From assembly GCA_964402065.1 (NCBI GenBank), contig CAYOAN010000001.1, positions 200,920-264,919 of the forward strand: 64,000 nucleotides of DNA, in the 5' to 3' direction. The position numbers and the translations under genes are program-made. Positions within the stretch are counted from its first letter, which is position 1. Each line of letters opens with the position of its first letter. Below are positions 15,075 to 64,000 of the stretch, piece after piece. The DNA is from an uncultured Chthoniobacter sp. (GTDB lineage: Bacteria; Verrucomicrobiota; Verrucomicrobiia; Chthoniobacterales; UBA6821). The notes beneath the pieces are model-generated. The model did no database searches, was not told where the DNA came from, and was given only the letters and a program-made list of their open reading frames with translations.

Positions 15075-15175
15075 TAGAGCATTTTCAAAAATTCTATAGC
15101 CGCGTGTTGTGATGTCACTCCGGGGATCGAAGCCTCGAGTATGCCCAAATGGTATAGGTTCAGGACATAGGTAAC
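15075..15175 (+). repeat. Family-1 element, short variant B (about 101 bp)
   Basis: TAGAGCATTTTCAAAAATTCTATAGCCGCG...CTCGAGTATG...AGGTTCAGGACATAGGTAAC. Starts on the base after the TGA stop (15072-15074). Its closest relative is the inverted copy at 25837-25936. Confidence 0.8.
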
Positions 15176-25836: not shown

Positions 25837-25936
25837 GTTACCTAGGTTCTGAACCTGTACCACACCTAATACTCGAGGCTTCGAGCACCGGAGTGACGCC
25901 GCAATGTGCAGCTATAGAATTTTTTAAAATGCTCTA
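25837..25936 (-). repeat. Family-1 element, short variant B, inverted
   Basis: The reverse complement reads TAGAGCATTTTAAAAAATTCTATAGCTGCACATTGCGGCGTCACTCCGGTGCTCGAAGCCTCGAGTAT...AGGTTCAGAACCTAGGTAAC. Lies 10 nt after the GT39 stop. Confidence 0.8.
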
Positions 25937-46829: not shown

Positions 46830-46864
46830 TCGGCACGCCGGTTTTCTAATGCTTGTTTATTATT

Positions 46865-48673: not shown

Positions 48674-48675
48674 AC

Positions 48676-49494
48676 ATGCTGCTTGGAATCATGCAAGGGA
48701 GATTGCTTCCTCCTATCAATAACCGAATTCAATGCTTCCCAAAAGATAGATGGAATGAAGAATTTTCTTTAGCATCTTCGTTGGGAATCCAAATGATTGA
48801 ATGGATTTATGAAGACTATGGGTCTAATGAAAATCCTTTATCGAGTGACACAGGTATCAGCTCTATAGAAAAGCTTGCTGCTGAGCAAGGGGTACAAGTT
48901 CTTTCTCTATGCGCAGACTATTTTATGGATTATCCTTTTTTGAGATGTAGCAGGAGCGAGCAACAAGAACGTATTAGCAAATTAAAATGGCTCCTCGATC
49001 GAGGACGAAAAGCTCATATTCGATCCATAGTGCTTCCATTTGTAGACGCTGCAAATATTAGAAATGTAGAGGAAATGAAAGAAGTGGTGGCGTTGTTGCA
49101 AGAAGTATTACCCTTGGCCGAACAATACAATATAGAACTTCATTTGGAAGCGGACTTGCCTCCAAATGTTTTCCATGCATTGCTGTGCCAATTGCGCCAT
49201 CCTCTTTTAATGGTTAATTACGATTCTGGAAATAGCGCATCATTAGGATATTCTATTTCAGAAGAGTTTAAGGCTTATGGAGAACGTATCGGTAGTATCC
49301 ATATTAAGGATCGTCTACTTGGAGGAAGTACCGTTTCCTTGGGGAAGGGGGCTGTTAATTTTATTGAACTTGCTACGGCTTTAAAAAAAATTCAGTATGA
49401 GCGCCCTCTCATTTTACAGATTGCTCGTGGAGTTTCTGGCGACGAAGTTCATTGGATAAAAAAGCATCTTCAAATGTTAACTGACATTTTTTAA
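48676..49494 (+). CDS. Xylose-isomerase-like TIM-barrel protein (sugar-phosphate isomerase/epimerase family)
   Basis: About 272 aa from ATG 48676 (MLLGIMQGRL), 2 nt after the upstream stop. Pattern ..IEW.., LEADL, NYDSGN, IHIKD is typical of AP_endonuc_2/TIM-barrel proteins. Confidence 0.75.
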   Translation: MLLGIMQGRLLPPINNRIQCFPKDRWNEEFSLASSLGIQMIEWIYEDYGSNENPLSSDTGISSIEKLAAEQGVQVLSLCADYFMDYPFLRCSRSEQQERISKLKWLLDRGRKAHIRSIVLPFVDAANIRNVEEMKEVVALLQEVLPLAEQYNIELHLEADLPPNVFHALLCQLRHPLLMVNYDSGNSASLGYSISEEFKAYGERIGSIHIKDRLLGGSTVSLGKGAVNFIELATALKKIQYERPLILQIARGVSGDEVHWIKKHLQMLTDIF

Positions 49495-49500
49495 AAACTG

Positions 49501-50328
49501 ATGAATGCCCTTCCATGGTTTAGCCTTGAAAAAAAACTTGCTGTTATCACTGGCGGTGCAGGCCTCCTAGGACGTCAGCATGTACATGCTATTGCGCTTG
49601 CTGGAGGTAGTTCCGTTATTCTTGATGTCGCAGCGGCTAAGCCTATCGAGGTAGCAAAAAAATTGGCAACAGAATGGAACGCTCCCATTTATGGGTATGA
49701 AGTTGATATCACCGATGTGAATGCGATTAGGAGCATGCAACAGCAGCTATTTTCTGAGTTAGGAAATATTGATATTTTAATTAATAATGCCGCTAATAAT
49801 CCCAAGATGAATGGCGATATCACCTCCAACAACTCAAGATTTGAATCATTTTCTTTGGAGGCATGGCATCAAGATGTAGCCGTTGGTCTAACAGGTTCTT
49901 TTTTATGTTGTCAGGTTTTTGGGGCTGAGATGGCTAAACAGGGACATGGAGTGATTGTTAATATTGCTTCTGACTTAAGCCTGATTTCACCAGATCAACG
50001 CCTTTACAAAGAACCTCATCTTCCTGAAAATTTACAACCAGTAAAGCCAGTGACCTATTCGGTCGTGAAGAGTGGAATTATAGGGCTGACACGTTACTTG
50101 GCAACTTATTGGGCTGACTGTGGTGTTCGTGTGAATGCGCTTTCTCCTGGAGGAGTCTTTACGGGACAAAATAAAGCTTTTGTGCAACGCTTAACTTCCT
50201 TAATTCCCCTAGGTCGAATGGCCGCTCCTACGGAATATCAAGCCGCGATTATTTTTCTTTGTTCTGAGGCTTCTTCCTATATGACGGGGCATAATTTAGT
50301 CATTGATGGGGGAAGAACATGTTGGTGA
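49501..50328 (+). CDS. Short-chain dehydrogenase/reductase
   Basis: ITGGAGLLGRQ, NNAA, YSVVKSG (YxxxK), NALSPGGV. Confidence 0.88.
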   Translation: MNALPWFSLEKKLAVITGGAGLLGRQHVHAIALAGGSSVILDVAAAKPIEVAKKLATEWNAPIYGYEVDITDVNAIRSMQQQLFSELGNIDILINNAANNPKMNGDITSNNSRFESFSLEAWHQDVAVGLTGSFLCCQVFGAEMAKQGHGVIVNIASDLSLISPDQRLYKEPHLPENLQPVKPVTYSVVKSGIIGLTRYLATYWADCGVRVNALSPGGVFTGQNKAFVQRLTSLIPLGRMAAPTEYQAAIIFLCSEASSYMTGHNLVIDGGRTCW

Positions 50329-50355
50329 TTGTTTCATCTATTCAATTTTTAAAAA

Positions 50356-51294
50356 ATGAAGAGTGAGAGAAGTCAGCGTGTTTATCTTTTAGGGGCGAGT
50401 GGTCGTTTAGGAAAAACCTTGTTGCAACAATGGAGGCATCATCAAAAAGCTGACTCTATCATTCCCTTAAGCAGGCAGGAGATTGATTTTTTAAATCCCC
50501 TTCTTGCTCAGAAAAATTTTTCTGCTTATGACCTTTGTGAAAACGATCTTGTGATTAATTGCGCTGCTTTAACCGATGTTGACTATTGTGAAAGTGAGGC
50601 TGTAGCAGCAACAGCTGTCAATGCAACAACGCCTGCTTTTTTAGCAGAGGTTTGTGCTCAAAAAGGAGCGCGCTTTCTTCAGCTTAGCACGGATTACGTA
50701 TTTGATGGCACCTTAGATCGTCCCTATGAAGAAACTGATGAGCCAGCTCCTATCAATCACTACGGTATTAGTAAACTTATTGGAGAACAACGGGTGATAG
50801 CAACTTCTGAGCAGCATATCATTGCTAGGATTTCTTGGGTCTTTGGCCCAGGATGTCCTAGCCTTATTGATCAAATACTTCAGGAAGCTATGACTTCTAA
50901 AAAAGTTGTTTCAGCTGTTGATAGAATCGCTTCGCCTTCTTTCACCCATGATCTGATAGAATCGCTTGGCGTGTTTTTAAATTCTTCTGTCAAAGGTGGA
51001 ATCTATCACCTTTGCAATACAGGAGCTTGCTCTTGGTATGAATATGGAACCTATGTTTTAAAAAAAGCCAGCGATTACGGAATGCCTGTTCGAACAACAG
51101 AAATTATTCCAACGAAATTATATTCTATGAAACAATTTAGAACACATCGCCCCTTGAAGACCCCTCTTAATACTAATAAATTTCGTAACGAGAGTGGCCT
51201 TACTTTCCGTCCATGGCAAGAGGCAGTAGATGAATATTTAGAGCATGTTCAAAAATTCTATAGCCGCTTATTGCGGCGTCACTCCGGTATTTGA
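50356..51294 (+). CDS. RmlD-type (dTDP-4-dehydrorhamnose reductase family) sugar-nucleotide reductase with a repeat-derived C-terminus
   Basis: LLGASGRLG, STDYVFDG, YGISKLIGE. The last 17 codons and the stop (..EHVQKFYSRLLRRHSGI*) are encoded by the family-1 element starting at 51239. Confidence 0.85.
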   Translation: MKSERSQRVYLLGASGRLGKTLLQQWRHHQKADSIIPLSRQEIDFLNPLLAQKNFSAYDLCENDLVINCAALTDVDYCESEAVAATAVNATTPAFLAEVCAQKGARFLQLSTDYVFDGTLDRPYEETDEPAPINHYGISKLIGEQRVIATSEQHIIARISWVFGPGCPSLIDQILQEAMTSKKVVSAVDRIASPSFTHDLIESLGVFLNSSVKGGIYHLCNTGACSWYEYGTYVLKKASDYGMPVRTTEIIPTKLYSMKQFRTHRPLKTPLNTNKFRNESGLTFRPWQEAVDEYLEHVQKFYSRLLRRHSGI

Positions 51295-51379
51295 GGCCTC
51301 GAGTATGAGATATACACTGCGTTTCTGCGCTCCTCGTTCCTGACACTATATCGGCTATAATATTTTTTAAAACGCCCTA
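51239..51379 (+). repeat. Family-1 MITE-like element, full copy (141 bp), overlapping the 3' end of the RmlD-like gene
   Basis: TAGAGCATGTTCAAAAATTCTATAGCCG ... CGGCTATAATATTTTTTAAAACGCCCTA. Near-identical in the core to 1857-1996. Confidence 0.85.
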
Positions 51380-51393
51380 GCGTCTGTGTCCCA

Positions 51394-52383
51394 ATGCTAC
51401 TGATAAAAAAAATGATGGTAACAACAAAACAGAGGGTTCCTGTAATAAAAGAAATAAAAAAGTGGCTTTTACTCCAAGGGCCTCATTCTATTTTTACTCA
51501 ATGGTCGTTGAAGCTCTATGGACTGTTGAAAGGTGGATATAAAGTCACTTTCAACAATGGAGTGATTAAATTTAGGAAAGCTCATCAGTGTCTTGTTATT
51601 AGCGAGAAGGATTGCATTTTTGCGCCATTAATTATGCGAGGCTTTTTTGATCAAAAATTTAACGAAATTGAGGCGAAGAAAATTAATGATATGGAGGTGC
51701 TTGATTTTTCGAAGCCAGGAACTCATTACCTTAAAGGTGATAAAATTGGATTTATCTTTCCAGGTTTGGCAGATGCTCCTGTTCATACTTATATTGATAA
51801 ATTTAAACCTGCTCCGGGAATGATTGTGTTTGATGTTGGTGCGCATGTCGGTGCTATTAGTTATTTTTTTTCAAAGATGGTAGGGGAGCAAGGTAAGGTT
51901 TATGCTTTTGAACCTGATGAAATCAACCTCTGCTATCTTAAGAGTAATATAAAAAATAAAAATTTAGCTAATGTTGCTGTTGTAACTGCAGCATTAGGAG
52001 GGCAATCAGGGAGCTCTGTATTTTTTGCCGATGGATCAATGCGATCATCTTTTGTAAAAAATGCTCCGTATCTTCCTAGTGATGGAGCTCAAAAAAAAGT
52101 AACGGTTTTAACGATTCAAGATTGTTGTGAGCAGCTAGGGGTTATTCCTGATTTTATTAAAATGGATATTGAAGGGGCAGAGATTGAGGTGATCAAAAGT
52201 TCTCTACATTTTTTAAAAGAACATCACATCCATTTTGCTATTGAAAGTAACCATCTTACTCAAGACGGCTGTTTAACGTCTGATGAGTTAGAAAGATTAT
52301 TTAAATCTATTGGCTATGTTGTAGAATCATCAGATCAGTTTGGAGAAATGTTTACTTGGGCAGCTCCGCCTGATCCGCTTTAA
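51394..52383 (+). CDS. FkbM-family methyltransferase
   Basis: VFDVGAHVGAISYFF (SAM motif), AFEPD, IKMDIEGAEIEV. The start codon is uncertain and several in-frame Met are present. Confidence 0.8.
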   Translation: MLLIKKMMVTTKQRVPVIKEIKKWLLLQGPHSIFTQWSLKLYGLLKGGYKVTFNNGVIKFRKAHQCLVISEKDCIFAPLIMRGFFDQKFNEIEAKKINDMEVLDFSKPGTHYLKGDKIGFIFPGLADAPVHTYIDKFKPAPGMIVFDVGAHVGAISYFFSKMVGEQGKVYAFEPDEINLCYLKSNIKNKNLANVAVVTAALGGQSGSSVFFADGSMRSSFVKNAPYLPSDGAQKKVTVLTIQDCCEQLGVIPDFIKMDIEGAEIEVIKSSLHFLKEHHIHFAIESNHLTQDGCLTSDELERLFKSIGYVVESSDQFGEMFTWAAPPDPL

Positions 52384-52397
52384 CGGAAGTGACTACC

Positions 52398-53333
52398 ATG
52401 AAAAAAAAACTCATTACCATTCTTACTCCAACTTTCAACGAAGAGGGAAATGTGGAAGAACTCTACCAGCAGGTACGAGAAATATTTCGTGGGTTGCCTC
52501 AGTATGATTATGAGTACCTTTTTATTGATAACGCTTCCCAGGATCGAACAGCAGAGCAGCTGAGGCTGCTGGCAGCAACTGACCCCAAGGTTAAAGTCAT
52601 TTTTAACCAGCGTAATTTTGGACATGCTCGCTCTCCGCAGTATGCATGCTATCAAGCGAGTGGAGAGGCTATTATTTCTCTAGCCTGTGACTTACAGGAT
52701 CCGCCTGCTCTTATTCCTGAGTTTTTAAAAAAATGGGAAGAAGGGTATCTCGTAGTGCTGGGGCAGAAAGTTAATAGCAAAGAATCAGCTATTATGTTTG
52801 CACTGCGAACAATGTACTATTCACTAGTCAATAAATTGTCTGATACCGAACTCATGCAGCATGTCACGGGTTTTGGACTTTATGATCGAACTGTGATTGA
52901 TCAGATCAAATCGTTAAATGACCCTTATCCCTATACGCGCGGCCTCATTGCTGAGCTTGGATATTCTGTTGCGCGTATTCCTTACACTCAATCAAAGCGC
53001 AAACGAGGACTGTCAAAAAATAATTTTTATACACTCTACGACTACGCAATGTTAGGAATTACAAGTCATTCAAAAATACCATTGCGACTAGCAACAATGC
53101 TTGGCTTTTTGATGTCCTTTTTGAGCGGGATTGCAGCAATAGGCTATTTTATTTATAAGCTTTTATTTTGGGATTCTCTTCCTATTGGGATTGCTCCGAT
53201 TGTGATTGGGCTTTTTCTCTTCTCATCGGTTCAACTTTTTTTCATTGGCATCGTTGGGGAATATATCGGAGCTATGCACACACAAATTTTACATCGTCCT
53301 TTGGTGGTTGAAAAAGAGCGTCTAAATTTCTAA
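52398..53333 (+). CDS. Family 2 glycosyltransferase, GtrB/CsbB/ArnC-type polyprenol-phosphate sugar synthase
   Basis: ILTPTFNEEGNV, IDNASQDRT, ACDLQDPP, plus two C-terminal TM helices (..LGFLMSFLSGIAAIGYFIY.. and ..IVIGLFLFSSVQLFFIGIVGEYIG). Confidence 0.9.
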   Translation: MKKKLITILTPTFNEEGNVEELYQQVREIFRGLPQYDYEYLFIDNASQDRTAEQLRLLAATDPKVKVIFNQRNFGHARSPQYACYQASGEAIISLACDLQDPPALIPEFLKKWEEGYLVVLGQKVNSKESAIMFALRTMYYSLVNKLSDTELMQHVTGFGLYDRTVIDQIKSLNDPYPYTRGLIAELGYSVARIPYTQSKRKRGLSKNNFYTLYDYAMLGITSHSKIPLRLATMLGFLMSFLSGIAAIGYFIYKLLFWDSLPIGIAPIVIGLFLFSSVQLFFIGIVGEYIGAMHTQILHRPLVVEKERLNF

Positions 53334-53351
53334 ATTGGTTCGTTTTTAAAT

Positions 53352-55718
53352 ATGCAGCAAAACAATAATTATTCTTTTTCAACCAGACTGATTTTTGGAA
53401 TAGGCTTCTTATTTTTTGGTGTGATTGGAATAACTTGGCTGTGCCAGCTTCCATCAGCTGAAGAAGCTTTCGGCAATACAGGAAAGTTATGGGATTTGCT
53501 GCAGACTCATTGGAACGGTTGGACACCGACATTCATGTTGGGGCATAGCGGTATGATTTATCAGCTCTCAGTCATAGAGCTTTTTACTCATTACCTTCTG
53601 CTGCCGCTTCAATCTTTTTTAACATTGTTTGCTATCAAAAAACTCATTGCGCTGGGGTATTTTGCAACTAGTGGTGTGACCATGTTTTTTTTCGCGCGAC
53701 GCCTGACCCGTAATGAAACTCAGGCTGCCGTGGCAGCGCTAGCCTACATCATGATGCCATCCATCACGGTCGCTATGGGAATTTATGAGCATTTCAGTGT
53801 GACCCTTTGTTTTGTTTTTGTTCCACTTATTTTACGAGGAGTTTTAGTTTTGTCCGAAGAGAAGTCGCTGCGAGAGACTGTTGGGCTAGGAATAGCAGCA
53901 AGTGCAATAGCATTAAGTTATGCGAAAATTGCTGTCGTGATTTCTCCGATGCTACTGCTCTGGACGTTGGAAGTTTTACGCTTACAACCTGTTGCAGTTC
54001 GTTTGAAAATCATCACGCGCTACGCCATGAGTGCTGCGCTAGCACTTATATTGACGCTTCCTTTTTTATTGCCAGCCTCACGAGAGTTTGGTTTTGCCGC
54101 TGGTTTTTTATTTGATCCGCTAGACGCTTGGCAACATCATTACGCATTTAAGTCAGCACTTCAATGGATTGATCTCTGGGGATTTTTGATGAAAGGTTCA
54201 GGAGCTGATATAGAGAGGGATGCTGCGATGTTTGCAATTGGGTTCATTCCACTGTTAGGCATTTCCTTGGGATTAGGGCTTCCTGCTTTAAAAGAATGGC
54301 GTCATTCCTTGCTTGGACGTTGGTTCCTAATCCTAGTAGTCTGCTGGTTATTTTCTATCAATCTGGCCGCAGGTCCTGATGGAATTCTTTTAGGGCATTG
54401 GCATCTTTTAAAAAATAATGCTCGTGATATTTCGGACTTTTCTGTTCCTCTTCTTTGGCTCGCTCTTGCTTGGTTAATTTGGATGAGTTATCAGGTTATC
54501 CGTTATCTCATTGCGGGAGCACCATGGCGCTCATGGTTATTATTAGCCTTATTTTTAGCGCTGCCTTTTTTTCGGATTGCAGCCGTATTTCCTTTATTTA
54601 AGGATATTCGAGCTCCGGAATCATTTTGGAGTGTGGGAGGTTTTTGCGCATTAGCAGCCGCTATTGGAATGGTGACAGTAGAGCTTTTTGTGAAAGTAGT
54701 TCCAATACGATTCCGTACTCTTGTCGCAGTAGTCATGGGCCTTCTGTTTATACTCGAGCTTTATCCTATTCATTCCACTTATTGGACACGTGGTCTATCT
54801 GAGGAACTTTTTTCTGATTACGATCAGTCAGTGGTTTTTTTAAAAAATGCACCGTTACCCGGTCGTGTCTACCCGTTGAGTAGCCGTTATTTTTATTTAA
54901 CGATTCCGCAAAAGACAGGGCGTTCTCTTAGTACGGAGGCCCTGATGCGGCATTTTGAATTGAAGTGGGTTCGGTGTTTTGAAGCCGCAGGGATGGCCAA
55001 CATTGATATGATGAAAACCTATCTCAACCTATCAGGGGTTTCTTATGTTTTCATCGATAAGGAAGATCCTCTGACGCCAAAACAAACGCAGGATATTTAC
55101 CGTGCTCTTTTTCCAGTCGTGTTTGAAAATCATTCGATTGTGATTTTAGCCAATGAGACTTCACTCTACCCGGCTTTTTTGGCACATAACTTTGTTGTGC
55201 TTCCTTCAGAAAGTTATCAGATGGCTCCAATGAGCTTGCAGTTAGCGCGAATGAATCTTCTTAGTGTAGAGCTTGCTTCAAGCGATCAACGGCAAAATGG
55301 ATTTGCAGGCAGAGCTGCCGGAAATAGTCAGGTAGAACTTTTGCCGCAATATCAAAAAAGCGGAGGAGCTCCTTTTGAACGCGTTCCTTCTATGAGTCGT
55401 CGGTCTGATGATTATGGGAAAATGATCTATCGTTTGCCTTCCACTGTTTCAGGATGGTTGACTGTTGCGGAGGCTTTTCATCCGGACTGGCAAGCTTTTA
55501 TTGATGGGCAGCCAACCGATATTCGTCGAGCTGCTTCAGCACTCCTTGCTGTCTATGTGCCACTTGGCTCTCAAGAAATTCTTTTTAAATTTGTTCCGCC
55601 GCTTTGGTATTCCATTTCATTTTACCTTGGATGCTTGCTTTGGGTCATAGCCTTGGGAAGCTTTTTATTTTTCCGCAGTCGTTGGGCTCATCCTTCTTGG
55701 AAGGACTGGTGGAATTAG
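53352..55718 (+). CDS. YfhO-like polytopic membrane protein (GT-C-type extracytoplasmic glycosyltransferase candidate)
   Basis: 788 aa with many TM helices. C-terminal module AEAFHPDWQAFIDGQPTDIRRA..LLAVYVPLGSQEILFKFVPP matches the YfhO-family tail pattern, followed by a final TM helix. Confidence 0.75.
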   Translation: MQQNNNYSFSTRLIFGIGFLFFGVIGITWLCQLPSAEEAFGNTGKLWDLLQTHWNGWTPTFMLGHSGMIYQLSVIELFTHYLLLPLQSFLTLFAIKKLIALGYFATSGVTMFFFARRLTRNETQAAVAALAYIMMPSITVAMGIYEHFSVTLCFVFVPLILRGVLVLSEEKSLRETVGLGIAASAIALSYAKIAVVISPMLLLWTLEVLRLQPVAVRLKIITRYAMSAALALILTLPFLLPASREFGFAAGFLFDPLDAWQHHYAFKSALQWIDLWGFLMKGSGADIERDAAMFAIGFIPLLGISLGLGLPALKEWRHSLLGRWFLILVVCWLFSINLAAGPDGILLGHWHLLKNNARDISDFSVPLLWLALAWLIWMSYQVIRYLIAGAPWRSWLLLALFLALPFFRIAAVFPLFKDIRAPESFWSVGGFCALAAAIGMVTVELFVKVVPIRFRTLVAVVMGLLFILELYPIHSTYWTRGLSEELFSDYDQSVVFLKNAPLPGRVYPLSSRYFYLTIPQKTGRSLSTEALMRHFELKWVRCFEAAGMANIDMMKTYLNLSGVSYVFIDKEDPLTPKQTQDIYRALFPVVFENHSIVILANETSLYPAFLAHNFVVLPSESYQMAPMSLQLARMNLLSVELASSDQRQNGFAGRAAGNSQVELLPQYQKSGGAPFERVPSMSRRSDDYGKMIYRLPSTVSGWLTVAEAFHPDWQAFIDGQPTDIRRAASALLAVYVPLGSQEILFKFVPPLWYSISFYLGCLLWVIALGSFLFFRSRWAHPSWKDWWN

Positions 55719-55795
55719 AGCGGTTTATCTCAAGTTAATGCTGCAACGATGGTCATTTCGGTACGTGCCTTCTCGATAACCACGTCCAAGAAAAA

Positions 55796-56410
55796 TCAAA
55801 AGTAATCTTTTTTTATTTCAGTGTTAGCAGTGCCATTCTCCCGCATTTCCCATTTTCTTTTTTCCTTTGTAGTCAATTGATCAAGGTCCTTTTTTGAAGG
55901 GAACTTAAAGCTGATTAGTTTTGAAGAGCTCGTATCCCAATCTACATCAAAGATGCACATTTTTTGCTCTTTGAACGGACTACCTTTAAAAGGATAAACT
56001 CCATAAATCAACCTGGCATTTTTTTTAAAAAAATGAACACCTACAACAAAGTAATAAGATGGTTCCTGTATGGGAGGATCACAATCGTAAGCCATCCAAT
56101 GATTGTCTTGGTAATGAACAATGGTGGCCATTGACCCTCCTGATAAATGAGAAACGATAAACAATGATTTTGAATCAGGTGTCCATTTAATATTTTGTAT
56201 GGAAAGAACAAGAGATTTTGAAAAGTCATTTTTAGAGGTTAAGCAATTATGAATTGTTAAAACTGTTTCTCTATCCCCAATAACCAACCTCGCAATATAT
56301 TTTTTGTTTGGTGATGGATATTCTTCATGACGTTCATATGCAACAGCCTCTTGCCCATGTATTAGACAGGTTAAAAATAATGAAAATAAAAAATTGCGAA
56401 AGAAGTTCAT
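55796..56410 (-). CDS. Cassette partner protein A: 204-aa signal-peptide protein of unknown family (candidate immunity/inhibitor)
   Basis: MNFFRNFLFSLFLTCLIHGQEA signal-like N-terminus. Its ATG lies 2 nt after the stop of the upstream gene. SPNKKYIA / WTPDSKSLFIV are beta-propeller-blade-like strings. The paralogue is at 58041-58655. Confidence 0.8.
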   Translation of the reverse strand: MNFFRNFLFSLFLTCLIHGQEAVAYERHEEYPSPNKKYIARLVIGDRETVLTIHNCLTSKNDFSKSLVLSIQNIKWTPDSKSLFIVSHLSGGSMATIVHYQDNHWMAYDCDPPIQEPSYYFVVGVHFFKKNARLIYGVYPFKGSPFKEQKMCIFDVDWDTSSSKLISFKFPSKKDLDQLTTKEKRKWEMRENGTANTEIKKDYF

Positions 56411-56412
56411 AT

Positions 56413-57174
56413 TTAGGATCCAGATGGATAGTAAGTAACTGTAGCATAAATGTCTCTATCATGATTAAATTGGTCAGAAGGATCTGTTGGAACTGGCCCT
56501 AATCCACCACTTCGCTCTTTAATGCCTAATCCGAGATCCTGAGCAGCTTTGATAGAAATTTCACCAACGCTATCTTTTTCAGGACCAAAGTCTCCTACAA
56601 TTGATGAGATAGATTTTATATATTGAGTTGAGTCAATGATGATAGGCCTACCACCTATCATACGCCAAGCGTATGTATAAAAATATACAGTTACATCTGC
56701 TCTGTCTCCCTTTTTGACACCTTGATTAATTAACCATATAGGAGCAACAACATAGGAATCAGTATCAGCATTGAGAGCTTTGTTATTTCTATGAAATGAT
56801 GTGTCCCCCTTATGATCGTAATCTCCATGAGAAGGTCCCGTTCCATCATCATCAAGTTTAATTTGGCCGTTATATGTTAATGGCCCTCTTACCATCATGA
56901 GAGGTAATTCTTCTTTAAATTCAGAAGCATTCTCGTTACTTGACTGATTTTCATAATCAGTTTCAATATTTTTATCGACACTAGTATTTTGATATTCTGC
57001 AGGTGTCTCGCTTTCCTCATTGGTTACTTCATTGCTAGTAGAGTAACAACCAATGCTTGAATAACTGCTAGCTGAAGAGTCAGAGTTGTACTCCGGAATA
57101 CTACTATAGGCAATAAGTTGATTTGGAAATAAAGTAGTCCATAGACAAAAAAGAAGGAGGAAAAATGGTTTCAT
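56413..57174 (-). CDS. Cassette protein A: 253-aa secreted protein with a GH75-chitosanase / double-psi-beta-barrel-like C-terminal domain (candidate glycan-hydrolase effector)
   Basis: Signal peptide MKPFFLLLFCLWTTLFPNQLIA, then an acidic S/N/E-rich linker. Motif order: LDDDGTG, GDTSF, LNADTDSYVVAP, GDRADVTV, IVGDFGP..VGEISIKAAQDLG. Confidence 0.8.
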   Translation of the reverse strand: MKPFFLLLFCLWTTLFPNQLIAYSSIPEYNSDSSASSYSSIGCYSTSNEVTNEESETPAEYQNTSVDKNIETDYENQSSNENASEFKEELPLMMVRGPLTYNGQIKLDDDGTGPSHGDYDHKGDTSFHRNNKALNADTDSYVVAPIWLINQGVKKGDRADVTVYFYTYAWRMIGGRPIIIDSTQYIKSISSIVGDFGPEKDSVGEISIKAAQDLGLGIKERSGGLGPVPTDPSDQFNHDRDIYATVTYYPSGS

Positions 57175-57193
57175 GGTTTTAGATTAGGGTCCT

Positions 57194-57222
57194 TCTAAAA
57201 CTGCGTGCTGGTATATTGTCAA
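57194..57222 (-). promoter_or_regulatory. Sigma70-type promoter of cassette A
   Basis: Minus strand: TTGACA (57217-57222), 17-nt spacer, TTTAGA (57194-57199), about 20 nt upstream of ATG 57174. Preceded by TTTAAAC. Confidence 0.55.
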
Positions 57223-57302
57223 GTTTAAATATCGTTATTTCCATGGATGATCAGCTTTCTATTGTTGGTGAGAAGAGCTAACTTGGATTGTGCTTCTGCG
57301 TA

Positions 57303-57437
57303 TCACACAATAACGTGTCGCAGGATTCGCTCTGGATTAAAAGGAGATCCGCTTCCTGGGAGTCTGATAAGTTTATCCTTGATCATATTTTGCTCAAGTA
57401 GCTCACTCAGAATATGTGCTCGTTCCAACTCCGTGAA
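57303..57437 (-). pseudogene. 3'-terminal fragment of an unidentified gene, truncated by the family-1 copy at 57438
   Basis: Minus-strand frame reads ..FTELERAHILSELLEQNMIKDKLIRLPGSGSPFNPERILRHVIV* with no start codon. The frame begins exactly at the repeat boundary. Confidence 0.4.
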
Positions 57438-57515
57438 TAGAGCATGTTAAAAAATTCTATAACCGCGTATTGCGGCGTCACTCCAGTGCTCGAAGTCCCC
57501 AGTATGAGATATAAT
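57438..57515 (+). repeat. Family-1 element, truncated (left half only)
   Basis: TAGAGCATGTTAAAAAATTCTATAACCGCGTATTGCGGCGTCACTCCAGTGCTCGAAGTCCCCAGTATGAGATATA, after which homology is lost. Confidence 0.8.
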
Positions 57516-57548
57516 ACCCATTTAGGGGAGTGGGGTATAAGAAGATAA

Positions 57549-57917
57549 ATGTTAAATCTTTTGATTTCTTGAAAATTTAAAACCAAATTGGGATTGGTCG
57601 TTTATACAAGTTTCAGCTTTCAATTCTCTAAATAAAGATCAAGTAAGACCCCTACCAATTTATAAAAAGAATGGGATCCACCTCTGAGGCCAACTCGAGA
57701 TTTTCTCTTTTGAAAATCCTCCGAAGCGCTCTTCGCAGCCTGAAGCATGTGGATTGCGGCATTTAGCATTTGCTGTTAATGATCTCCAGGCCGCTGTTCA
57801 ATATTTGGTCGAGAGAGACATTGTCTGTGAACCAATTCGTATTGATGAATTGACGAGTAAACGATTTGTTTTTTCAACACTCCTGATGAGTTGCCATTGG
57901 AGCGTTATGAAAAATAG
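57549..57917 (+). pseudogene. Decayed VOC/glyoxalase-family (YaeR-like) pseudogene
   Basis: 57694-57917 reads LEIFSFENPPKRSSQPEACGLRHLAFAVNDLQAAVQYLVERDIVCEPIRIDELTSKRFVFF-NTPDELPLERYEK* only if 1 nt is restored in the T6 run at 57869-57874. There is an in-frame TGA at 57685-57687. The N-terminal half is eroded or shortened. Confidence 0.75.
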
Positions 57918-58040
57918 ACAAGATCAAGTACAAGGTGGAGAGTATAAGAATTTTTTAACTCTTCCAAAAATTTTTCGACAGATTCAATAAATTGTACCTA
58001 TCACCTTCTTCACTAGGAAAATAACCACGTCCGCGAAGAA

Positions 58041-58655
58041 TCAAAAGTAATCTTTTTTTATTTCAGTGTTAGCAGTGCCATTCTCCCACATTTCCCATTT
58101 TCTTTTTTCCTTTGTAGTCAATTGATCAAGGTCCTTTTTTGAAGGGAGCTTAAAGCTGATTAGTTTTGGAGAGCCGGTATTCCAGTCTACATCAAAAATG
58201 CATATTTTTTGTTCTTTGAACGGACTACCTTTGGAAGGATAAACTCCATAAACTAGCCTAGCAAATTTTTTGAAGAAGTGAGCTCCAACAACAAAGTAAT
58301 AGCATGGACCCTTTACAGGAGGATCACAATTGTAAGCCATCCAATGATTGTCTTGGTAATGAACAATGGTGGCCATCGATCCTCCTGATAAATGCTCAAC
58401 GATAAATAGTGATTTTGAATCAGGCGTCCATTGAATATTTTCTACACGGGAAATAAGAGCTTGTGAAAAATCATCTTTAGAGGTTAAGCAATTATGAATT
58501 GTTAAAACTGTTTCTCTATCCCCAATAACCAACCTCGCAATATATTTTTTGTTTGGTGATGGATATTCTTCATGACGTTCATATGCAACAGCCTCTTGCC
58601 CATGTATTAGACAGGTTAAAAATAATGAAAATAAAAAATTGCGAAAGAAGTTCAT
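58041..58655 (-). CDS. Cassette partner protein B: 204-aa signal-peptide protein (candidate immunity/inhibitor), paralogue of 55796-56410
   Basis: The first 60 aa are identical to copy A. The central region is diverged (DDFSQALISRVENIQW vs NDFSKSLVLSIQNIKW; PPVKGPCYY vs PPIQEPSYY). Same 2-nt coupling to the upstream gene. Confidence 0.8.
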   Translation of the reverse strand: MNFFRNFLFSLFLTCLIHGQEAVAYERHEEYPSPNKKYIARLVIGDRETVLTIHNCLTSKDDFSQALISRVENIQWTPDSKSLFIVEHLSGGSMATIVHYQDNHWMAYNCDPPVKGPCYYFVVGAHFFKKFARLVYGVYPSKGSPFKEQKICIFDVDWNTGSPKLISFKLPSKKDLDQLTTKEKRKWEMWENGTANTEIKKDYF

Positions 58656-58657
58656 AT

Positions 58658-59422
58658 TTAGGATCCAGATGGATAGTAAGTAACTGTAGCATAAATGTCT
58701 CTGTTTTGATTGACTTGATCATGAGGATCTGTTGGAACTGGTCCTAGTCCATTAGAGCGTTCCCTGATACCCAGTCCCAAATCCCTAGCTGCCTTGATAG
58801 ATATTTCACCGACGTCATCTTGCACAGGCCCAACATCTCCTACTATTGATGATATTGATTTTGTATAACAATTACAGGGGTAGGTTACTAAGTTATTATT
58901 GGCATCTAAGCCACTATTATATTCATAAAAATATACGGTTACATCGGCTCTATCTCCCCCTCTAACACCTTGACTGGATAACCATCCAGGAGCGACAACA
59001 TAGGAATCAGTATCAGCATTGAGAGCTTTGTTATTTCGATGAAATGCTGTATCGTTGTTGTGCTTTTTATCATTATGAGATGGTCCCGTTCCATCATCAT
59101 CAAGTTTAATTTGGCCGTTATATGTTAATGGCCCTCTTACCATCATGAGAGGTAATTCTTCTTTAAATTCAGAAGCATTCTCGTTACTTGACTGATTTTC
59201 ATAATCAGTTTCAATATTTTTATCGACACTAGTATTTTGATATTCTGCAGGTGTCTCGCTTTCCTCATTGGTTACTTCATTGCTAGTAGAGTAACAACCA
59301 ATGCTTGAATAACTGCTAGCTGAAGAGTCAGAGTTGTACTCCGGAATACCAGTATAGGCAATAAGTTGATTTGGAAATAAAGTAGTCCATAGACAAAAAA
59401 GAAAGAGGAAAAATGGTTTCAT
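58658..59422 (-). CDS. Cassette protein B: 254-aa secreted GH75/DPBB-like protein, paralogue of 56413-57174
   Basis: The N-terminal roughly 115 aa are nearly identical to copy A. The catalytic-domain core is diverged, but DDDGTG, LNADTDSYVVAP, GDRADVTV and IVGDVGP..VGEISIKAARDLG are retained. Confidence 0.8.
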   Translation of the reverse strand: MKPFFLFLFCLWTTLFPNQLIAYTGIPEYNSDSSASSYSSIGCYSTSNEVTNEESETPAEYQNTSVDKNIETDYENQSSNENASEFKEELPLMMVRGPLTYNGQIKLDDDGTGPSHNDKKHNNDTAFHRNNKALNADTDSYVVAPGWLSSQGVRGGDRADVTVYFYEYNSGLDANNNLVTYPCNCYTKSISSIVGDVGPVQDDVGEISIKAARDLGLGIRERSNGLGPVPTDPHDQVNQNRDIYATVTYYPSGS

Positions 59423-59441
59423 GGTTTTAGATTAGGGACCT

Positions 59442-59470
59442 TATAAAACTGCGTGCTGGTATATTGTCAA
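59442..59470 (-). promoter_or_regulatory. Sigma70-type promoter of cassette B
   Basis: Minus strand: TTGACA (59465-59470), 17-nt spacer, TTTATA (59442-59447). Conserved with cassette A. Confidence 0.55.
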
Positions 59471-59547
59471 GTTTAAATAGCATCGTAGTTATTGTAATTT
59501 TTGAACTATTATTACTTAGAAATTACATTAAGTTGATTTCATCTTAT

Positions 59548-59672
59548 TTAGGAACAAGCAGCGTTCGCATTCAGTCACGTTATCTTCGGATAGCGTCTCA
59601 GTCTTCGGCCTTGTCCTAAGAAAAAATGCCGGCGCTTCTAACGTCCCCCTTTTCAATTTAATACACTATAAT
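59548..59672 (+). repeat. Family-2 dispersed repeat (best-preserved copy)
   Basis: TTAGGAACAAGCAGCGTTCGCAT..CACGTTATCTTCGGATAGCGTCTCAGTCTTCGGCCTTGTCCTAAGAAAAAAT..CTTTTCAATTTAATACACTATAAT. Contains the hairpin CGTTATC-TTCG-GATAGCG (59578-59595). Confidence 0.75.
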
Positions 59673-59687
59673 TTTACTTAAAGTGGC

Positions 59688-60527
59688 CTAAGCGCCTAAA
59701 TCAATAGAGTGATTTTTTAATGCAGGTAGCCATTCTTGAGCCCAAGCAATAACGGTGTCGATTCCTCTTTCTAGCTCAATAGTTGGTTGCCATGAAAGAT
59801 CATGATGATACTGCGTAGATTCTAACAGCTCTTCTTTGTTTTGATGCTGGTGATCACCAATAAGGGTTACGACATCTTCAAAACTTACGTTCAGGCGATT
59901 GCAAATTAAAGACACAAGGTCTCGAACTGAAATGAGGTGATTGTTAGAAAAATGATAAATCTCTCCAGGGACTCCCTCGTAAACTACCCTGAAGATGCCG
60001 GCAGTGATGTCATTGATATGAATAAAGGCTTGCTTGGTGTGGCCACCATCATGAAGGAGAAATTTTTTTTCTGATAAAATAGAGAGAATGATTTTAGGAA
60101 TGAGCTCATGAACTTGCTGACCGGGGCCGTAAACATGACTCATTGGAGCTATGACAACAGAAGAAGTTTTGGTAGTTGTGTTCCGTTGATAGCAATTCTC
60201 CTTCAGTGAGGAAACAGAGACATACTTCAGAGGCTGATTTTTTAATTGATCATGAAAGTCGAGCTGAACATCACCCATGCAATGAATAATATAATCTGGA
60301 TTATAATCATTGATCATCGAGATGGCATTATCAGGATGAGCACCCAAACTGAGTTGCTTTAGGGTAAGGCGGTGAGCGCTTCCTACTTTCCAATGATAAG
60401 GTGTAAACGGAATACTTTTTTTGGGGACGTAGCTTATCCCTAGTACAGTGAGCCCTTGAGAGAGTGCATGGTGAACAAAATGACTTCCCGAAAAAGAATG
60501 ACTTCCAATAATAACGATTTTTTCCAT
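59688..60527 (-). CDS. Divergent NAD-dependent epimerase/dehydratase-family protein (catalytic motif apparently degenerate)
   Basis: 279 aa. The N-terminal Rossmann-like IVIIGSHSFSGSHF and HVYGPGQ are conserved. The region where S..YxxxK is expected is shortened (..ENCYQRNTTTKTS..), with no clear YxxxK. Confidence 0.75.
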   Translation of the reverse strand: MEKIVIIGSHSFSGSHFVHHALSQGLTVLGISYVPKKSIPFTPYHWKVGSAHRLTLKQLSLGAHPDNAISMINDYNPDYIIHCMGDVQLDFHDQLKNQPLKYVSVSSLKENCYQRNTTTKTSSVVIAPMSHVYGPGQQVHELIPKIILSILSEKKFLLHDGGHTKQAFIHINDITAGIFRVVYEGVPGEIYHFSNNHLISVRDLVSLICNRLNVSFEDVVTLIGDHQHQNKEELLESTQYHHDLSWQPTIELERGIDTVIAWAQEWLPALKNHSIDLGA

Positions 60528-60541
60528 GGTGTTAGATTTCC

Positions 60542-60562
60542 TCTGCAGGCTATAGCCTATAA
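60542..60562 (-). promoter_or_regulatory. Heptad array (minus strand: TTATAGG CTATAGC CTGCAGA) 14 nt upstream of the ATG
   Basis: Read directly. It coincides with the tail of the inverted family-2 copy. Confidence 0.45.
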
Positions 60563-60670
60563 AACTGAAAAGGGTGCGTTAGAAGCACAGAAATTTTTTC
60601 TTAGGACAAGGCTGAAGATTGAACCGCTATCTGAAGATAACCAGCCGTCTGAAAACAAAGTCTTAAGAAA
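60549..60670 (-). repeat. Family-2 dispersed repeat, inverted relative to 59548-59672
   Basis: The reverse complement reads ..GGTTATCTTCAGATAGCGGTTCAATCTTCAGCCTTGTCCTAAGAAAAAATTTCTGTGCTTCTAACGCACCCTTTTCAGTTTTATAGGCTATAG. About 85 percent identical by eye to the 59548 copy over the core. Confidence 0.7.
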
Positions 60671-60948
60671 AAAAAGAACAAGCTTAAGCCGTGCATGATA
60701 AATGATAGCAAGATGCTGTGCAAGGTGCAGGAACACGAGGAGGGTGAAAGAAAGCGATTCTACTTTTTAAGTAACAAAATACCTTGAACGCTTCGCAATA
60801 TGTTATCGACACGAGGCTAGTTTTAGTCACATTGGGAGAGTTCAAACAGAAATGCTTGAATGACCTTCCAGATGGAAATGAATTTCAATATGAAAATTCT
60901 TGATAACGCTGCAGGTCAGATTACATTTTTTATTTCCTACTTTTTTTC

Positions 60949-61692
60949 ATGAACACACTTTCTATTCGCAATCTTCATGCTTCCATTGGTGAGCAACCCA
61001 TTCTTCGAGGCCTTAATTTAGAGATTCCACAAGGAGAGGTTCACGCAATTATGGGAAAGAATGGTTCTGGAAAAAGCACGCTTGCTAAAGTCATGGCTGG
61101 ACATCCTGACTATACGGTTACGGAAGGAGAGGTGTTGCTCAATGGGCAAAATATTTTTGGTATGGAGCCAGATGAGCGTGCTCGTCTGGGACTTTTTCTC
61201 GCCTTTCAATATCCAATGGAAATTCCTGGTGTCACGATTGCTAATTTTATTCGAGCAGCATTGCAGGCTCGCCTTCCTGAAGGTGAAGAACTAGAAGCGA
61301 CAGAGTATTACGCTCAGCTTTATAAAAAAATGGACGAGCTGAGCATTCCTCGCACCTTCACTTCACGTGCTGTTAACGAAGGGTTCTCAGGTGGAGAAAA
61401 AAAACGCTGTGAAGTTTTACAGATGGCAATGCTACAACCTAGCTATGCTGTACTTGATGAAACTGATAGCGGTCTGGATATCGATGCGCTCAAAATTGTT
61501 TCTTCTGGAGTCAATGCGCTGCGAGGTCCCGGAGTTGGTATGCTGGTCATTACTCACTACCAAAGGCTCCTCAACTACATTGTCCCTGACAAGGTCCACG
61601 TGATGACCGAGGGACGAATTGTGATGAGTGGGGATAAAGATCTCGCTTTGAAATTAGAATCGGAAGGCTACGACTGGGTTAAAGCAGAATAA
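60949..61692 (+). CDS. sufC: Fe-S cluster assembly ATPase SufC
   Basis: 247 aa. Walker [23 protein letters not shown] signature, Walker [12 protein letters not shown]. Confidence 0.96.
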
Positions 61693-61705
61693 AACATGTA
61701 ATGTT

Positions 61706-63130
61706 ATGAAGGAAACTGAATCTTCAACTATTGCAGAACAAGTAGCTATTGACCGTTCGGTTGGCGATTTTCGCTACGATGTCGATTATGCTTTTGATGC
61801 TGGTGTCGGCTTAACAGAAAAAACCATCGATTACATTTGTGATGTAAAAGGTGATCCTGACTGGGTTCGCAAGTTTCGAAAAGAGGGGTACAAGAAATTT
61901 TTAGAGAAACCAATGCCAACGCATTGGGCGAGTAAAGATCTTGAAAATATTGTTTTTGAAAATATTCGCTATTACCTTGCGCAGGGACAGGCTCCTAAAC
62001 GTAGCTGGGAAGAGGTTCCTGAAGAAGTGAAAAAGACTTTCGAGCGCCTTGGTATTCCAGAACAAGAGCGCAAATTTTTAGCTGGTGTTGAAGCTCAGTT
62101 TGATAGCGAAGCGGCTTATTCCAACATTAAAGAGGCTGTAGGCAAACAGGGAGTTATTTTTGTAGGAAGCACCGAAGGCTTACAAAAACACCCTGAAATT
62201 TTTAAAAAATGGTTTGGGAAGGTCATTCCAAGTGGTGATAACAAATTTAGTGCCCTAAATAGCGCTGTCTTTAGCGGTGGAAGTTTTATTTATGTCCCTC
62301 CGGGTGTTAAGGTTTCTCATCCGCTTCAAGCCTACTTCCGGATTAATGCTCAAAACTTTGGGCAGTTCGAGCGAACCCTTATCATTGCTGATGAAGGTTC
62401 AGAAGTAACGTATATGGAGGGGTGTACTGCGCCAAAATTTGAAACAGCAACGCTGCACAGTGCTGTGGTTGAATTAGTCGCATTAAAAGGGGCAAAAATT
62501 CAATATATTACAGTACAGAATTGGAGCTCTAATGTTTTTAATCTCGTAACAAAGCGTGGTCTTGCTCACGAAGATGCTGAGATCAAGTGGATCGATTGTA
62601 ATATTGGTTCACGTCTTACCATGAAATATCCAGGCGTTGTTATGAAAGGGCGTCGTGCGCGTGGAGAAGTGATTTCAATTGCTCTTGCAGGTGATGGCCA
62701 GCATCAAGACACGGGTGCAAAAATGGTTCACGCTGCGGATGAAACAACGAGCAATATCATTTCCAAATCAATTAGCCTTGGGACGGGCCGTGCAACTTAC
62801 CGAGGCATGGTGCATATTCCAAAGCATCTCAAAAAATGCAAAAACAATACGGAATGTGATGCATTGTTGATTAATGCCAATAGCCGTACGGATACTTATC
62901 CTGCGATTACAGTTCGTGGTCAAGGTCACTCGGTTCAGCACGAGGCAAGTGTCAGCCAGATTAATGAAGAGCAAATTTTTTATATGCAACAGCGGGGTCT
63001 CAGTGAGGCTGCTGCAATGAGCTTGGCGGTGAATGGTTTTGTTAATGATCTCGTGCAGCAATTTCCTATGGAATACTCCGTAGAGTTGAAACGCCTGATT
63101 GATCTAGAAATGGAGGGCTCTGTTGGTTAG
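61706..63130 (+). CDS. sufB: Fe-S cluster assembly protein SufB
   Basis: 474 aa. Conserved SufB core ([59 protein letters not shown]). Confidence 0.96.
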
Positions 63131-63264
63131 TTTACTTTGTTCCTGCTATTGCGTGAGCTCCGTTGCGACGGGACTCGACGCTTCCAGTATTTCCATATAC
63201 ACTCTTCCTTTTTCTGCGATCGAGCCTTGCTCTTCATCCGTGCTAGCGAATTTTTAATGTACTA
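63128..63264 (+). repeat. Diverged family-1-like element beginning with the sufB stop codon
   Basis: ..CCAGTATTTCCATATACACTC.. compares with GAGTATGAGATATACACTGC. The right end GCTAGCGAATTTTTAATGTACTA compares with GGCTATCATATTTTTTAAAATGCTCTA. Confidence 0.5.
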
Positions 63265-63287
63265 GTTCAAGATGATATGTCTTTCCT

Positions 63288-64000
63288 ATGAATATTGCTT
63301 CACAACATAAAAGTAATTCTGTTTTTCCAAACTGGTTTGCTCAACAACAAGAACTTGCTTGGAAACAATTTCAAGCATTACCAGTGCCAACACGACATGA
63401 TGAGTTGTGGCGGTTTTCCAATTTAAAAAGTCTCGACCTGTCAACGTGGCAGGAAGCTTCTGCGCCGACGGACAGAGATGATTTATTGGCTCTTTCCCAA
63501 GGAATGAACGATGTTGCAGCAAAGCTTGTTTTTTCAAATGATCATTTAATTGCGAGAGAGGCTAACGAACTTCCAGGCGGTGTGTTACTTGTTTCCTTAG
63601 AAGAAGCAGCACGAGATCATGAGGCATTATTAAAAAATTATTTTATGAACCACCCTGCTTTGCTTGGTTCAGCCAAGATCGCAGCGCTTCATCAAGCTCA
63701 ATTGAAAACAGGAGCGTTTCTCTATGTTCCAAGTGGGGTGAAAATTGAAAAGCCTATCGAATTATGGCATTGGAACGATGGCAGCCATGTCGCTACTTTT
63801 CCTCATACCCTTATCGTCTGTGAGGAGGGAAGCTCCGTTTCAGTAGTTGATCATTTTTGCTCAGTAAAAAAGGAAGCGTCTTTTGTCGCAGGCGTTCATG
63901 ATTTGATAGTAAAAGAAAATGCAAATCTGAAGTATGTTGCTGTGCAAAATTCGAATGCTGAGACAACAGCTTTTCACTTGAATACGACGGATGTCAGTAA
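63288..64000 (+). CDS. sufD: Fe-S cluster assembly protein SufD (3'-truncated by the window edge)
   Basis: Open frame from ATG 63288 to the window end (MNIASQHKSNSVFPNWFAQQQELAWKQFQALPVPTRHDELWRFSNL..LYVPSGVKIEKPIEL..). Not in the ORF track because no stop is reached. Confidence 0.9.
   Translation, partial: MNIASQHKSNSVFPNWFAQQQELAWKQFQALPVPTRHDELWRFSNLKSLDLSTWQEASAPTDRDDLLALSQGMNDVAAKLVFSNDHLIAREANELPGGVLLVSLEEAARDHEALLKNYFMNHPALLGSAKIAALHQAQLKTGAFLYVPSGVKIEKPIELWHWNDGSHVATFPHTLIVCEEGSSVSVVDHFCSVKKEASFVAGVHDLIVKENANLKYVAVQNSNAETTAFHLNTTDVS

Follow-up and report, generated by a model that had tools for sequence, protein, structure and literature searches.

Two tandem copies of a putative toxin-immunity-type operon with identical ends and diverged cores in an uncultured Chthoniobacter

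Two copies of a two-gene unit and their mosaic identity

The DNA considered here is a stretch of 64,000 nucleotides (the 64-kb window) from an uncultured Chthoniobacter sp. (GenBank assembly GCA_964402065.1, contig CAYOAN010000001.1, positions 200,920 to 264,919), which carries two minus-strand copies of a unit of two genes, here called A and B, separated by a unique spacer of 789 bp (57232-58020). Each unit comprises an upstream region, an A gene, a B gene and a short tail; unit 1 runs from 55776 to 57231, its tail being 20 nt long, and unit 2 from 58021 to 59479, as delimited by aligning one against the other with blastn and MAFFT, and 55776 and 57231 are the points at which the homology of unit 1 to unit 2 and to the cassettes of other loci stops. 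The open reading frames (ORFs) of A1 (56413-57174, 253 aa) and A2 (58658-59422, 254 aa) share an architecture of signal peptide, disordered acidic linker of ~70 aa and predicted GH75-like domain, the latter at residues ~93-253 of A1, and differ in having a type I core in A1 and a type II core in A2. B1 (55796-56410, 204 aa) is predicted from its ORF, its structural model and its homologues elsewhere to be an exported, partially beta-propeller-like protein and the probable immunity or inhibitor partner of A, and B2 (58041-58655, 204 aa), with 88% amino acid identity to B1, would be a second allele of that partner. The stop codon of A is followed after 2 nt (AT) by the B gene in both units, and both are full-length ORF pairs with the same upstream region, within which a TTGACA is found at 57217-57222; neither is silent, orphaned or truncated at its 5' end.

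Over the 1459 columns of a global MAFFT alignment the two units are 88.1% identical (88.7% by blastn), this being the average of segments that range from 70.4% to 100%. Three conserved stretches, here termed handles, alternate with two divergent cores. The 5' handle (56834-57231 in unit 1, 59082-59479 in unit 2) takes in 57 nt of upstream sequence common to both units and A codons 1-113, is identical at 393 of 398 positions (98.7%) and includes a perfect block of 268 bp (56834-57101 = 59082-59349). The junction handle (56231-56457 = 58476-58702) is perfect over all its 227 bp and consists of the last 45 nt of A, the 2-nt gap and the first 180 nt of B, whilst the 3' handle (55776-55904 = 58021-58149) holds B codons ~169-204 and the tail and is 96.1% identical. 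Between these lie the enzyme core (56458-56833; 58703-59081 in unit 2), which corresponds to A codons 114-239 with a hypervariable hairpin at residues 167-190 and is only 70.4% identical with one 3-bp indel, and the partner core (55905-56230; 58150-58475 in unit 2), which corresponds to B codons 61-168 and is 84.0% identical.

This pattern had been recognised by eye in the original prediction, which proposed that perfectly matching blocks flank strongly diverged cores, described dense substitutions and an indel within the latter and named a non-uniform identity profile as the check. The profile is indeed non-uniform, the cores are as described and the make-up given for the junction block is borne out exactly by the ORFs and the alignment, but the coordinates were off by 1-3 nt. 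The junction block, put at 225 bp from 56233, is perfect but starts at 56231, and the stretch of about 400 bp put at more than 97% identity ends at 57231 and 59479 rather than at 57232 and 59477.

A search of the unit borders for target-site duplications, inverted repeats or a common site-specific boundary found none, and a cassette of the integron or transposon type was rejected since the borders vary between contexts and lack repeats. Silent cassettes of the type used in antigenic variation were also rejected, as both copies are complete and have the same upstream region, and no promoter-less or 5'-truncated orphan cassettes, such as lie behind the full-length gene in polymorphic toxin systems, are present at the window locus. 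A scan for sigma-70 promoters and terminators did not call the conserved TTGACA region and gave no terminator after B, and Rfam returned no credible match between 50 and 61 kb.

Recombination between the copies and between lineages

When the 174 differing columns were shuffled 100,000 times across the unit alignment the longest identical run had a mean of 44 bp and a maximum of 121 bp, as against the 268 and 227 bp observed (P < 1e-5), and the analytic probabilities of these two perfect runs are ~3e-13 and ~5e-11 respectively. Synonymous divergence (dS) is 0 throughout A codons 1-113, where there are 67 synonymous sites, and throughout B codons 1-60 and 167-204, which bring the number of such sites to 124, versus 0.80 in A codons 114-239, where it saturates in the hairpin, and 0.50 in B codons 61-166, with a range across the cores of 0.5-2.8. 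Uniform drift following duplication, which the original prediction had held to be incapable of producing the mosaic, is thereby ruled out. The blocks are coding or regulatory sequence, and it could be argued that divergence was uniform and that strong purifying selection acted on the flanks only; the likelihood of this is negligible. The handle blocks, which encode signal peptides and the disordered linker, are 55-93% identical between lineages and thus among the least conserved parts of the cassette, and since they have diverged in this way and yet have a dS of 0 between the two copies, purifying selection on the flanks cannot explain the mosaic, quite apart from the permutation result. A recombination test had also been called for, and an incompatibility test of the pairwise homoplasy index (PHI) type on 11 complete cassettes gave 0.264 compared with 0.350 +/- 0.004 under permutation, none of 1000 permutations being as low. 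The mosaic is of recombinational origin.

A second strain is represented by contigs L045 and L041 in a low-coverage short-read assembly of metagenome ERZ4216102. L045 covers window positions 45796-56888 with 3 single-nucleotide polymorphisms (SNPs) in 11,093 bp (99.97% identity), and L041 covers 59082-63505 with 5 SNPs and one 21-bp indel (a match of 99.4%). The indel is in frame, at 62471-62491 in a SufB-like gene (61706-63130), L041 and the window being otherwise 99.9% identical. Six of the eight SNPs (56341, 56362, 59139, 59270, 59279 and 59294) fall within the perfect blocks, which account for 550 bp in a comparison of 15,517 bp (binomial P = 5e-8); four are in the unit-2 copy of the 5' block, and the two in the junction block, 56341 and 56362, cause the changes I17L and A24P in B. 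Both changes are found together in a B1-like protein (P0033) and in a B2-like protein (P0034) from assemblies other than that of the window, the sample of origin of P0034 not being tied to strain 2. In the window itself the two copies agree with one another at 56891, 57046 and 56341, where their state is not that of strain 2 nor, in most or all cases, that of the remaining lineages.

Tracts with a dS of 0 within diverged paralogues, and between-strain differences common to both copies, are the hallmarks of concerted evolution, with the caveat for the latter that strain 2 is known from short reads. Because six of the eight SNPs lie in the blocks, and because both partner proteins carry the same two changes, these observations indicate that ongoing gene conversion between the copies keeps the blocks identical, which was one of the two mechanisms originally put forward.

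The source is probably a metagenome-derived contig, and blocks of 227-268 bp are of roughly the length at which phasing by short reads fails, which raises the question of whether strain variants were stitched together in tandem or repeats homogenised by multi-mapped reads during assembly or polishing. It would seem very improbable that this is so, as independent assemblies from at least five samples reproduce the flanks and cores at 99.4-100% identity and break exactly at the block edges. L041 stops at 59082, precisely where the 268-bp block has its edge, L045 starts 55 nt within the block, and in three samples short-read contigs with 100% identity to the window stop at 59450, which gives ends at 59450 or 59082 in four samples besides that of the window; contig ends at block edges are the mark of a true repeat in de Bruijn assembly and therefore argue against an artefact in the window. 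Furthermore L045 spans the junction block with the same linkage of A1 core to B1 core, and the spacer and outer flanks are unique.

Relatives of the two genes are few. A word-indexed search of 5.8 billion proteins identified 22 homologues of A and 9 of B, and a profile search of 1.84 billion cluster representatives gave 261 matches to A at E <= 1e-3, with a small and patchy distribution. The close relatives are from freshwater Verrucomicrobiia assemblies, where other loci each have a single cassette, and A is followed by B in every locus whose contig reaches far enough. Several of these cassettes are on plasmid-like contigs: those of L005 (4139-6930) and L011 (223-11006) adjoin genes for ParA/VirC1-type ATPases, L005 also having a DDE transposase and a PRiA4_ORF3 gene, and L011 a TrwC relaxase, a DUF6088 gene and transposase fragments, to which its relatives L012-L014 add AbiEii. 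The cassette of L033 (186-6572, a contig of an NCBI metagenome-assembled genome) has a ParA-type neighbour and sits beside the type III secretion genes HrpJ/TyeA, FliMN_C and Bac_export_1/2, and those of L015 and L034 are chromosomal.

In protein alignment the A core falls into two classes that cross lineages, whilst the N-terminal half follows lineage and not class. Type I cores (YTYAW.M.GGRP.II...KERSGG...PSDQFN) are found in A1, L005, L001/L015, L034 and L036, type II cores (YEYNS.LDAN.NLVTYPCN...RERSNG...PHDQVN) in A2, L011, L019, L021 and L033, and L035 has a core of mixed type. The dS across the split between types is 1.1-2.8, compared with 0.25-0.8 across the lineage splits (flanks, and cores within classes), and by this measure the type I/II split predates the lineage splits. 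One plasmid-like locus, between parA and PRiA4_ORF3, has a type I cassette in L005 and a type II cassette in L021, with flanks that are 88-98% identical and cores that are 59-71% identical, repeating between alleles the mosaic of the window.

Exchange can also be traced within unit 1, which is a patchwork with tracts of ~110 bp that are 97-99% identical to the type II cassette of L019, from another lineage. A probable imported conversion tract in A1 (56728-56835, minus strand) has 3 mismatches in 108 bp relative to L019 with dense differences on either side, and A codons 114-166, which largely overlap it, have a dS of 0.03 as against 0.45 and 2.6 in the next segments; in B1, 56136-56248 has 1 mismatch in 113 bp. 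The second of the mechanisms proposed at the outset was the import of alternative core alleles through conserved flanks, to be sought by comparing the locus across relatives, and such alleles were found, in classes that cross lineages, at a shared plasmid locus and in tracts of very low dS. On comparative evidence core imports occur besides conversion, with both mechanisms of the original prediction finding support.

That imports are real, and that alleles of type I and type II are found in place of one another at a single plasmid locus, also lends something to a different history, in which a recent tandem duplication left flanks that are identical because they are young, both cores were replaced by foreign alleles and no conversion is under way. 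We regard this as unlikely. The second strain, which matches the window at 99.97% in the flanks, already has both cores, and yet its blocks differ from those of the window at 6 sites and the blocks appear uniform within each strain. In unit 2 the type II core is joined to what is seen in type I cassettes, a ...YPSGS end and an A/B gap of 2 nt. Of the other five type II cassettes only L035 has this 2-nt junction, and L011, L019, L021 and L033 have a ...GQKW end with 55-96 nt between A and B. Nor is the locus a simple recent tandem duplication, because the 789-bp spacer is not duplicated, no copy of it being found on either side of the units.

The predicted products and their possible role

AlphaFold models residues 93-253 of A1 with a predicted local distance difference test (pLDDT) score of ~90, the linker of ~70 aa scoring below 50. 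When the domain was compared with the PDB by Foldseek the five best matches (E 5e-5 to 8e-5, probability 1.0) were all to V-Csn, a viral chitosanase of family GH75 (7TVL-7TVP), with modest template modelling scores (TMt 0.40), and kiwellin, another double-psi beta-barrel protein, was also matched. The model has the double-psi beta-barrel and the second lobe forming a cleft that typify the GH75 fold. Six positions are universally conserved in GH75, namely D34, D36, D148 and E157 (V-Csn numbering) and two glycines (PMC9485262). D108, D110, G111 and G113 do not vary among the 22 A homologues, both alleles included, and D195 and E205 occur in at least 90% of them, the family pattern DDDGxG...GDxGP...VGExS being kept in both alleles; the spacing of D195 and E205 is 10, compared with 9-13 in GH75 enzymes, which is a likeness at the level of sequence spacing. 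L004 and L032, two distant A homologues, pass the Glyco_hydro_75 cut-off (PF07335; 27 bits) with 28.1 and 28.4 respectively, a link that is transitive only. From predicted fold, motif and transitive homology, the A domain appears to be GH75-like.

L004 (2500-4281) and L032 (1179-2975) are from Saccharimonadales, of the candidate phyla radiation, and encode secreted proteins of ~595 aa in which an N-terminal GH75-like domain is joined to Phage_lysozyme2 or a Peptidase_C39-like domain, which suggests that they are cell-wall-attacking enzymes. A further feature of the family is a YS[SN]IPEY...YS[SN]IG.Y motif (YSSIPEY...YSSIGCY in A1) directly past the signal peptide of every stand-alone A homologue (57040-57110 and 59290-59360 in the window, A residues ~22-46). 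It is lacking from the versions fused to RHS proteins described below, is confined to A-family proteins among the DNA compared, and may be a sorting, anchoring or secretion signal.

The B model (pLDDT 88.7) has twelve strands and C-terminal helices and is matched by Foldseek to part of a TolB/WD40-type beta-propeller, resembling in prediction three blades of a TolB/PD40-type propeller; the sequence contains the repeats SPxKKYIA and WTPDSKSLF, and a profile search of the PDB gave weak WD-repeat matches only.

It is the wider distribution of the domain that speaks most directly to function. In L003 (1573 aa), L028 and L031 the A domain forms the extreme C-terminus of RHS-repeat proteins, past a DPxGL-type core end (Pfam RHS_repeat E 3e-26; hhalign probability 99.6%), and nine of ten long representatives with the A domain at the C-terminus have RHS. 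Directly downstream of these RHS-A genes is a gene whose product has a signal peptide and is a homologue of B (hhalign probability 98%). The A domain family is thus found on a polymorphic-toxin scaffold, whilst A1 and A2 themselves have only a signal peptide and linker, and by position and homology B looks like a downstream immunity gene, being 2 nt past A in the window and having homologues after the RHS genes. An RHS C-terminal A domain followed by a B homologue appears to be a polymorphic toxin/immunity signature, and the analogy with toxin/immunity cassettes drawn in the original prediction gains support from this homology. B is accordingly named as the probable immunity or inhibitor partner of A, and as B is exported a periplasmic or envelope target is implied.

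The locus therefore lends itself to a reading that we consider probable, namely that it contains two complete tandem operons of toxin-immunity type, the handles of which are homogenised by conversion and the old cores of which are exchanged among lineages and plasmid-like elements. A would be a Sec-exported protein with a signal peptide, a disordered linker and a 160-aa glycoside-hydrolase domain of the GH75-like double-psi beta-barrel kind; we infer that it is toxic and that its target is a glycan such as peptidoglycan or a polymer containing glucosamine (GlcN), and B would bind and neutralise it in the producer's periplasm. The enzyme core (residues 114-239) and the partner core (residues 61-168) are present in the two operons as distinct and old alleles. 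Around these cores three stretches would serve as handles for homologous recombination: the upstream region with the 5' end of A, the A/B junction and, in B, the 3' end. The tandem copies keep the handles identical by non-reciprocal exchange, in concerted evolution, and recombination by way of these handles with other cassettes of the population, many of which are on plasmid-like elements, would move core segments between lineages. Strong divergence of the cores would halt conversion tracts, and selection for two specificities would probably help both alleles to persist.

A number of observations weigh against this reading. Gross positive selection was looked for in the cores and is absent (omega 0.16-0.5), no linkage of enzyme-core type to partner-core type was evident among 12 cassettes, and type II enzymes occur with both partner variants, which is unexpected of strictly cognate pairs. 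The A proteins of the window lack RHS, PAAR or any other trafficking domain, and their neighbourhood is rich in glycan-synthesis genes. Pfam and NCBIfam gave nothing meaningful for A1, A2, B1 or B2, A1 and A2 having no Pfam match at E <= 1, and a profile search of PDB sequences gave no match for A. With regard to conversion, shared repeat nodes in the short-read assembly of strain 2 could force the same sequence into both copies. Finally, a third A paralogue in the window's genome (P0015, L037:10001-11386, 47% identical), which lies between gyrA and secA, has as its partner a 241-aa exported protein that was tested for homology to B and proved unrelated. A homologue of this alternative partner also follows an A homologue in L025 (6308-7696), and this suggests that the toxin fold has two families of immunity-like partner.

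Some of these points would also fit a housekeeping or niche glycanase that acts on chitosan, exopolysaccharide or the cell wall during remodelling, B being an accessory protein with a binding or regulatory role; in this case too the mosaic would arise from recombination of paralogues. Here the omega below 1, the lack of linkage between A and B types and the paralogue between gyrA and secA all count in its favour, as do the neighbours of the units in the window, which include a GT2 glycosyltransferase, a YfhO-like protein, an FkbM methyltransferase and epimerases. In L015 there is, ~8 kb from the cassette (10827-12082), a giant gene that combines GH18, polysaccharide deacetylase and chitin-synthase/GT2 domains, with MBOAT and DUF2334 nearby, and it would seem from this that a pathway for a polymer resembling chitin or chitosan is encoded near the GH75-like gene. 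A glycanase of this sort is nonetheless rather unlikely, as RHS proteins repeatedly carry the domain at their very C-terminus and are followed by a B homologue, cassettes lie on plasmid-like contigs beside ParA, TrwC relaxase, AbiEii and transposases, the distribution is as patchy as 261 representatives among 1.84 billion proteins, and the island has a lower GC content than its flanks.

If the toxin-immunity reading is extended, it is conceivable, though we advance it tentatively, that GH75-fold domains form an unrecognised class of antibacterial cell-envelope toxin, borne on RHS scaffolds or stand-alone and Sec-exported, with a dedicated family of PD40/beta-propeller-like periplasmic immunity proteins, and that, for the stand-alone modules, the junction handle lets toxin and immunity cores reassort independently. 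Such reassortment would, if it occurs, imply an immunity that is broad and not strictly allele-specific. The A-B pair is in use both on RHS scaffolds and as plasmid-borne stand-alone modules, and if its role were confirmed the enzymatic repertoire of interbacterial weapons would be wider and a second, non-nutritional role would be suggested for a glycoside-hydrolase family so far known for the degradation of chitosan.

Surroundings of the units and relation to known systems

Within the window the GC content of the cassette island is 34-38%, as against 41-44% in the flanks. The spacer has a short ORF (57754-57990, 78 aa) with no Pfam match, which by eye is like a fragment of a glyoxalase/vicinal oxygen chelate (VOC) protein, and the gene to the right of unit 2 (59688-60527), an epimerase/dehydratase, is matched over its C-terminal part only. 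The partial genes and the lower GC content suggest that 55.8-60.5 kb is a decayed, recombination-prone island. The spacer also contains one copy (57438-57513) of a dispersed repeat of ~75 bp, of which others are found at 1857-1931, 15074-15143, 25866-25936 (inverted) and 51239-51314, and in L037 and L001. The copies are 81-87% identical, have a short GC hairpin (GCCGC-TTATT-GCGGC) and have no Rfam match, and four of the five in the window lie at, or no more than ~50 bp past, the stop codon of a gene; the repeat could be an element like the repetitive extragenic palindromes (REP), a terminator module or a small RNA.

The locus brings two recombination processes together at one site, with ends that are homogenised within the genome and cores that are exchanged between genomes, and both are visible at strain resolution in uncultured freshwater Verrucomicrobiia. 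Tandem paralogues that evolve in concert around cores resistant to conversion are likewise a feature of the bacteriocin-immunity mosaics of the colicin and pyocin type. The arrays of effector and immunity genes of type VI secretion systems (T6SS), for example those of Vibrio cholerae (PMC5361080), are similar in having identical tracts with abrupt divergence, exchange mediated by flanks and several specificities per genome. Unlike these T6SS and colicin systems, the window has no T6SS context and no colicin-type lysis or uptake context, and its handles take in the signal-peptide region of the immunity gene.

The closest parallel is with the polymorphic toxins, in which an RHS/YD-repeat protein ends in a C-terminal toxin and is followed by an immunity gene, and for which the parts of the survey by Zhang et al. 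2012 (PMC3482391) drawn on here also recognise a class of toxins of the Sec/type II secretion system that have only a signal peptide. As in these systems, the A domain recurs at the C-terminus of RHS proteins, the partner gene is immediately downstream and co-varies in presence, alleles are exchanged via conserved sequence, some cassettes are on plasmid-like and probably mobile contigs and the genome of the window has more than one module. Variation on lineage-specific constant 5' parts, as expected of polymorphic toxins, is also seen in the type I and II cores, but in the window it is allelic within one fold with no swap of unrelated toxin domains. The window proteins differ further in having only a signal peptide and linker in place of a repeat or trafficking scaffold, the copies are full-length with their own upstream region and not 5'-truncated orphans, and there is an extra internal handle across the toxin/immunity junction.

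With regard to the proteins, A resembles the GH75 chitosanases, both the fungal Csn and the soil-virus V-Csn (7TVL-7TVP, PMC9485262), in its predicted fold, its acidic pattern DxD...GD...GE.S and its conserved glycines, but differs in having ~15-19% identity to them and a context of RHS fusion and immunity-like partner as opposed to nutrition; its substrate could be peptidoglycan or another GlcN-containing polymer. B is like the Tsi, Tai and Tgi periplasmic immunity proteins in being small, all-beta, equipped with a signal peptide and encoded directly downstream, but has no sequence match or specific structural match to any of them. A text search of the PMC3482391 catalogue, in the portion available, gave no toxin domain of the chitosanase, barwin or double-psi kind. 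Toxin domains described as 'chitosanases-like', and not further specified, are listed in a 2025 T6SS study, and the literature searched held no description of a GH75-like glycanase and a propeller-like partner as a toxin/immunity pair. The exchange of cores via conserved flanks and concerted evolution are already known as the logic of polymorphic toxin loci and bacteriocin mosaics; what differs here are the stand-alone full-length modules in tandem, the third handle over the junction, and a putative GH75-like toxin fold and immunity fold that are not mentioned in those parts of PMC3482391.

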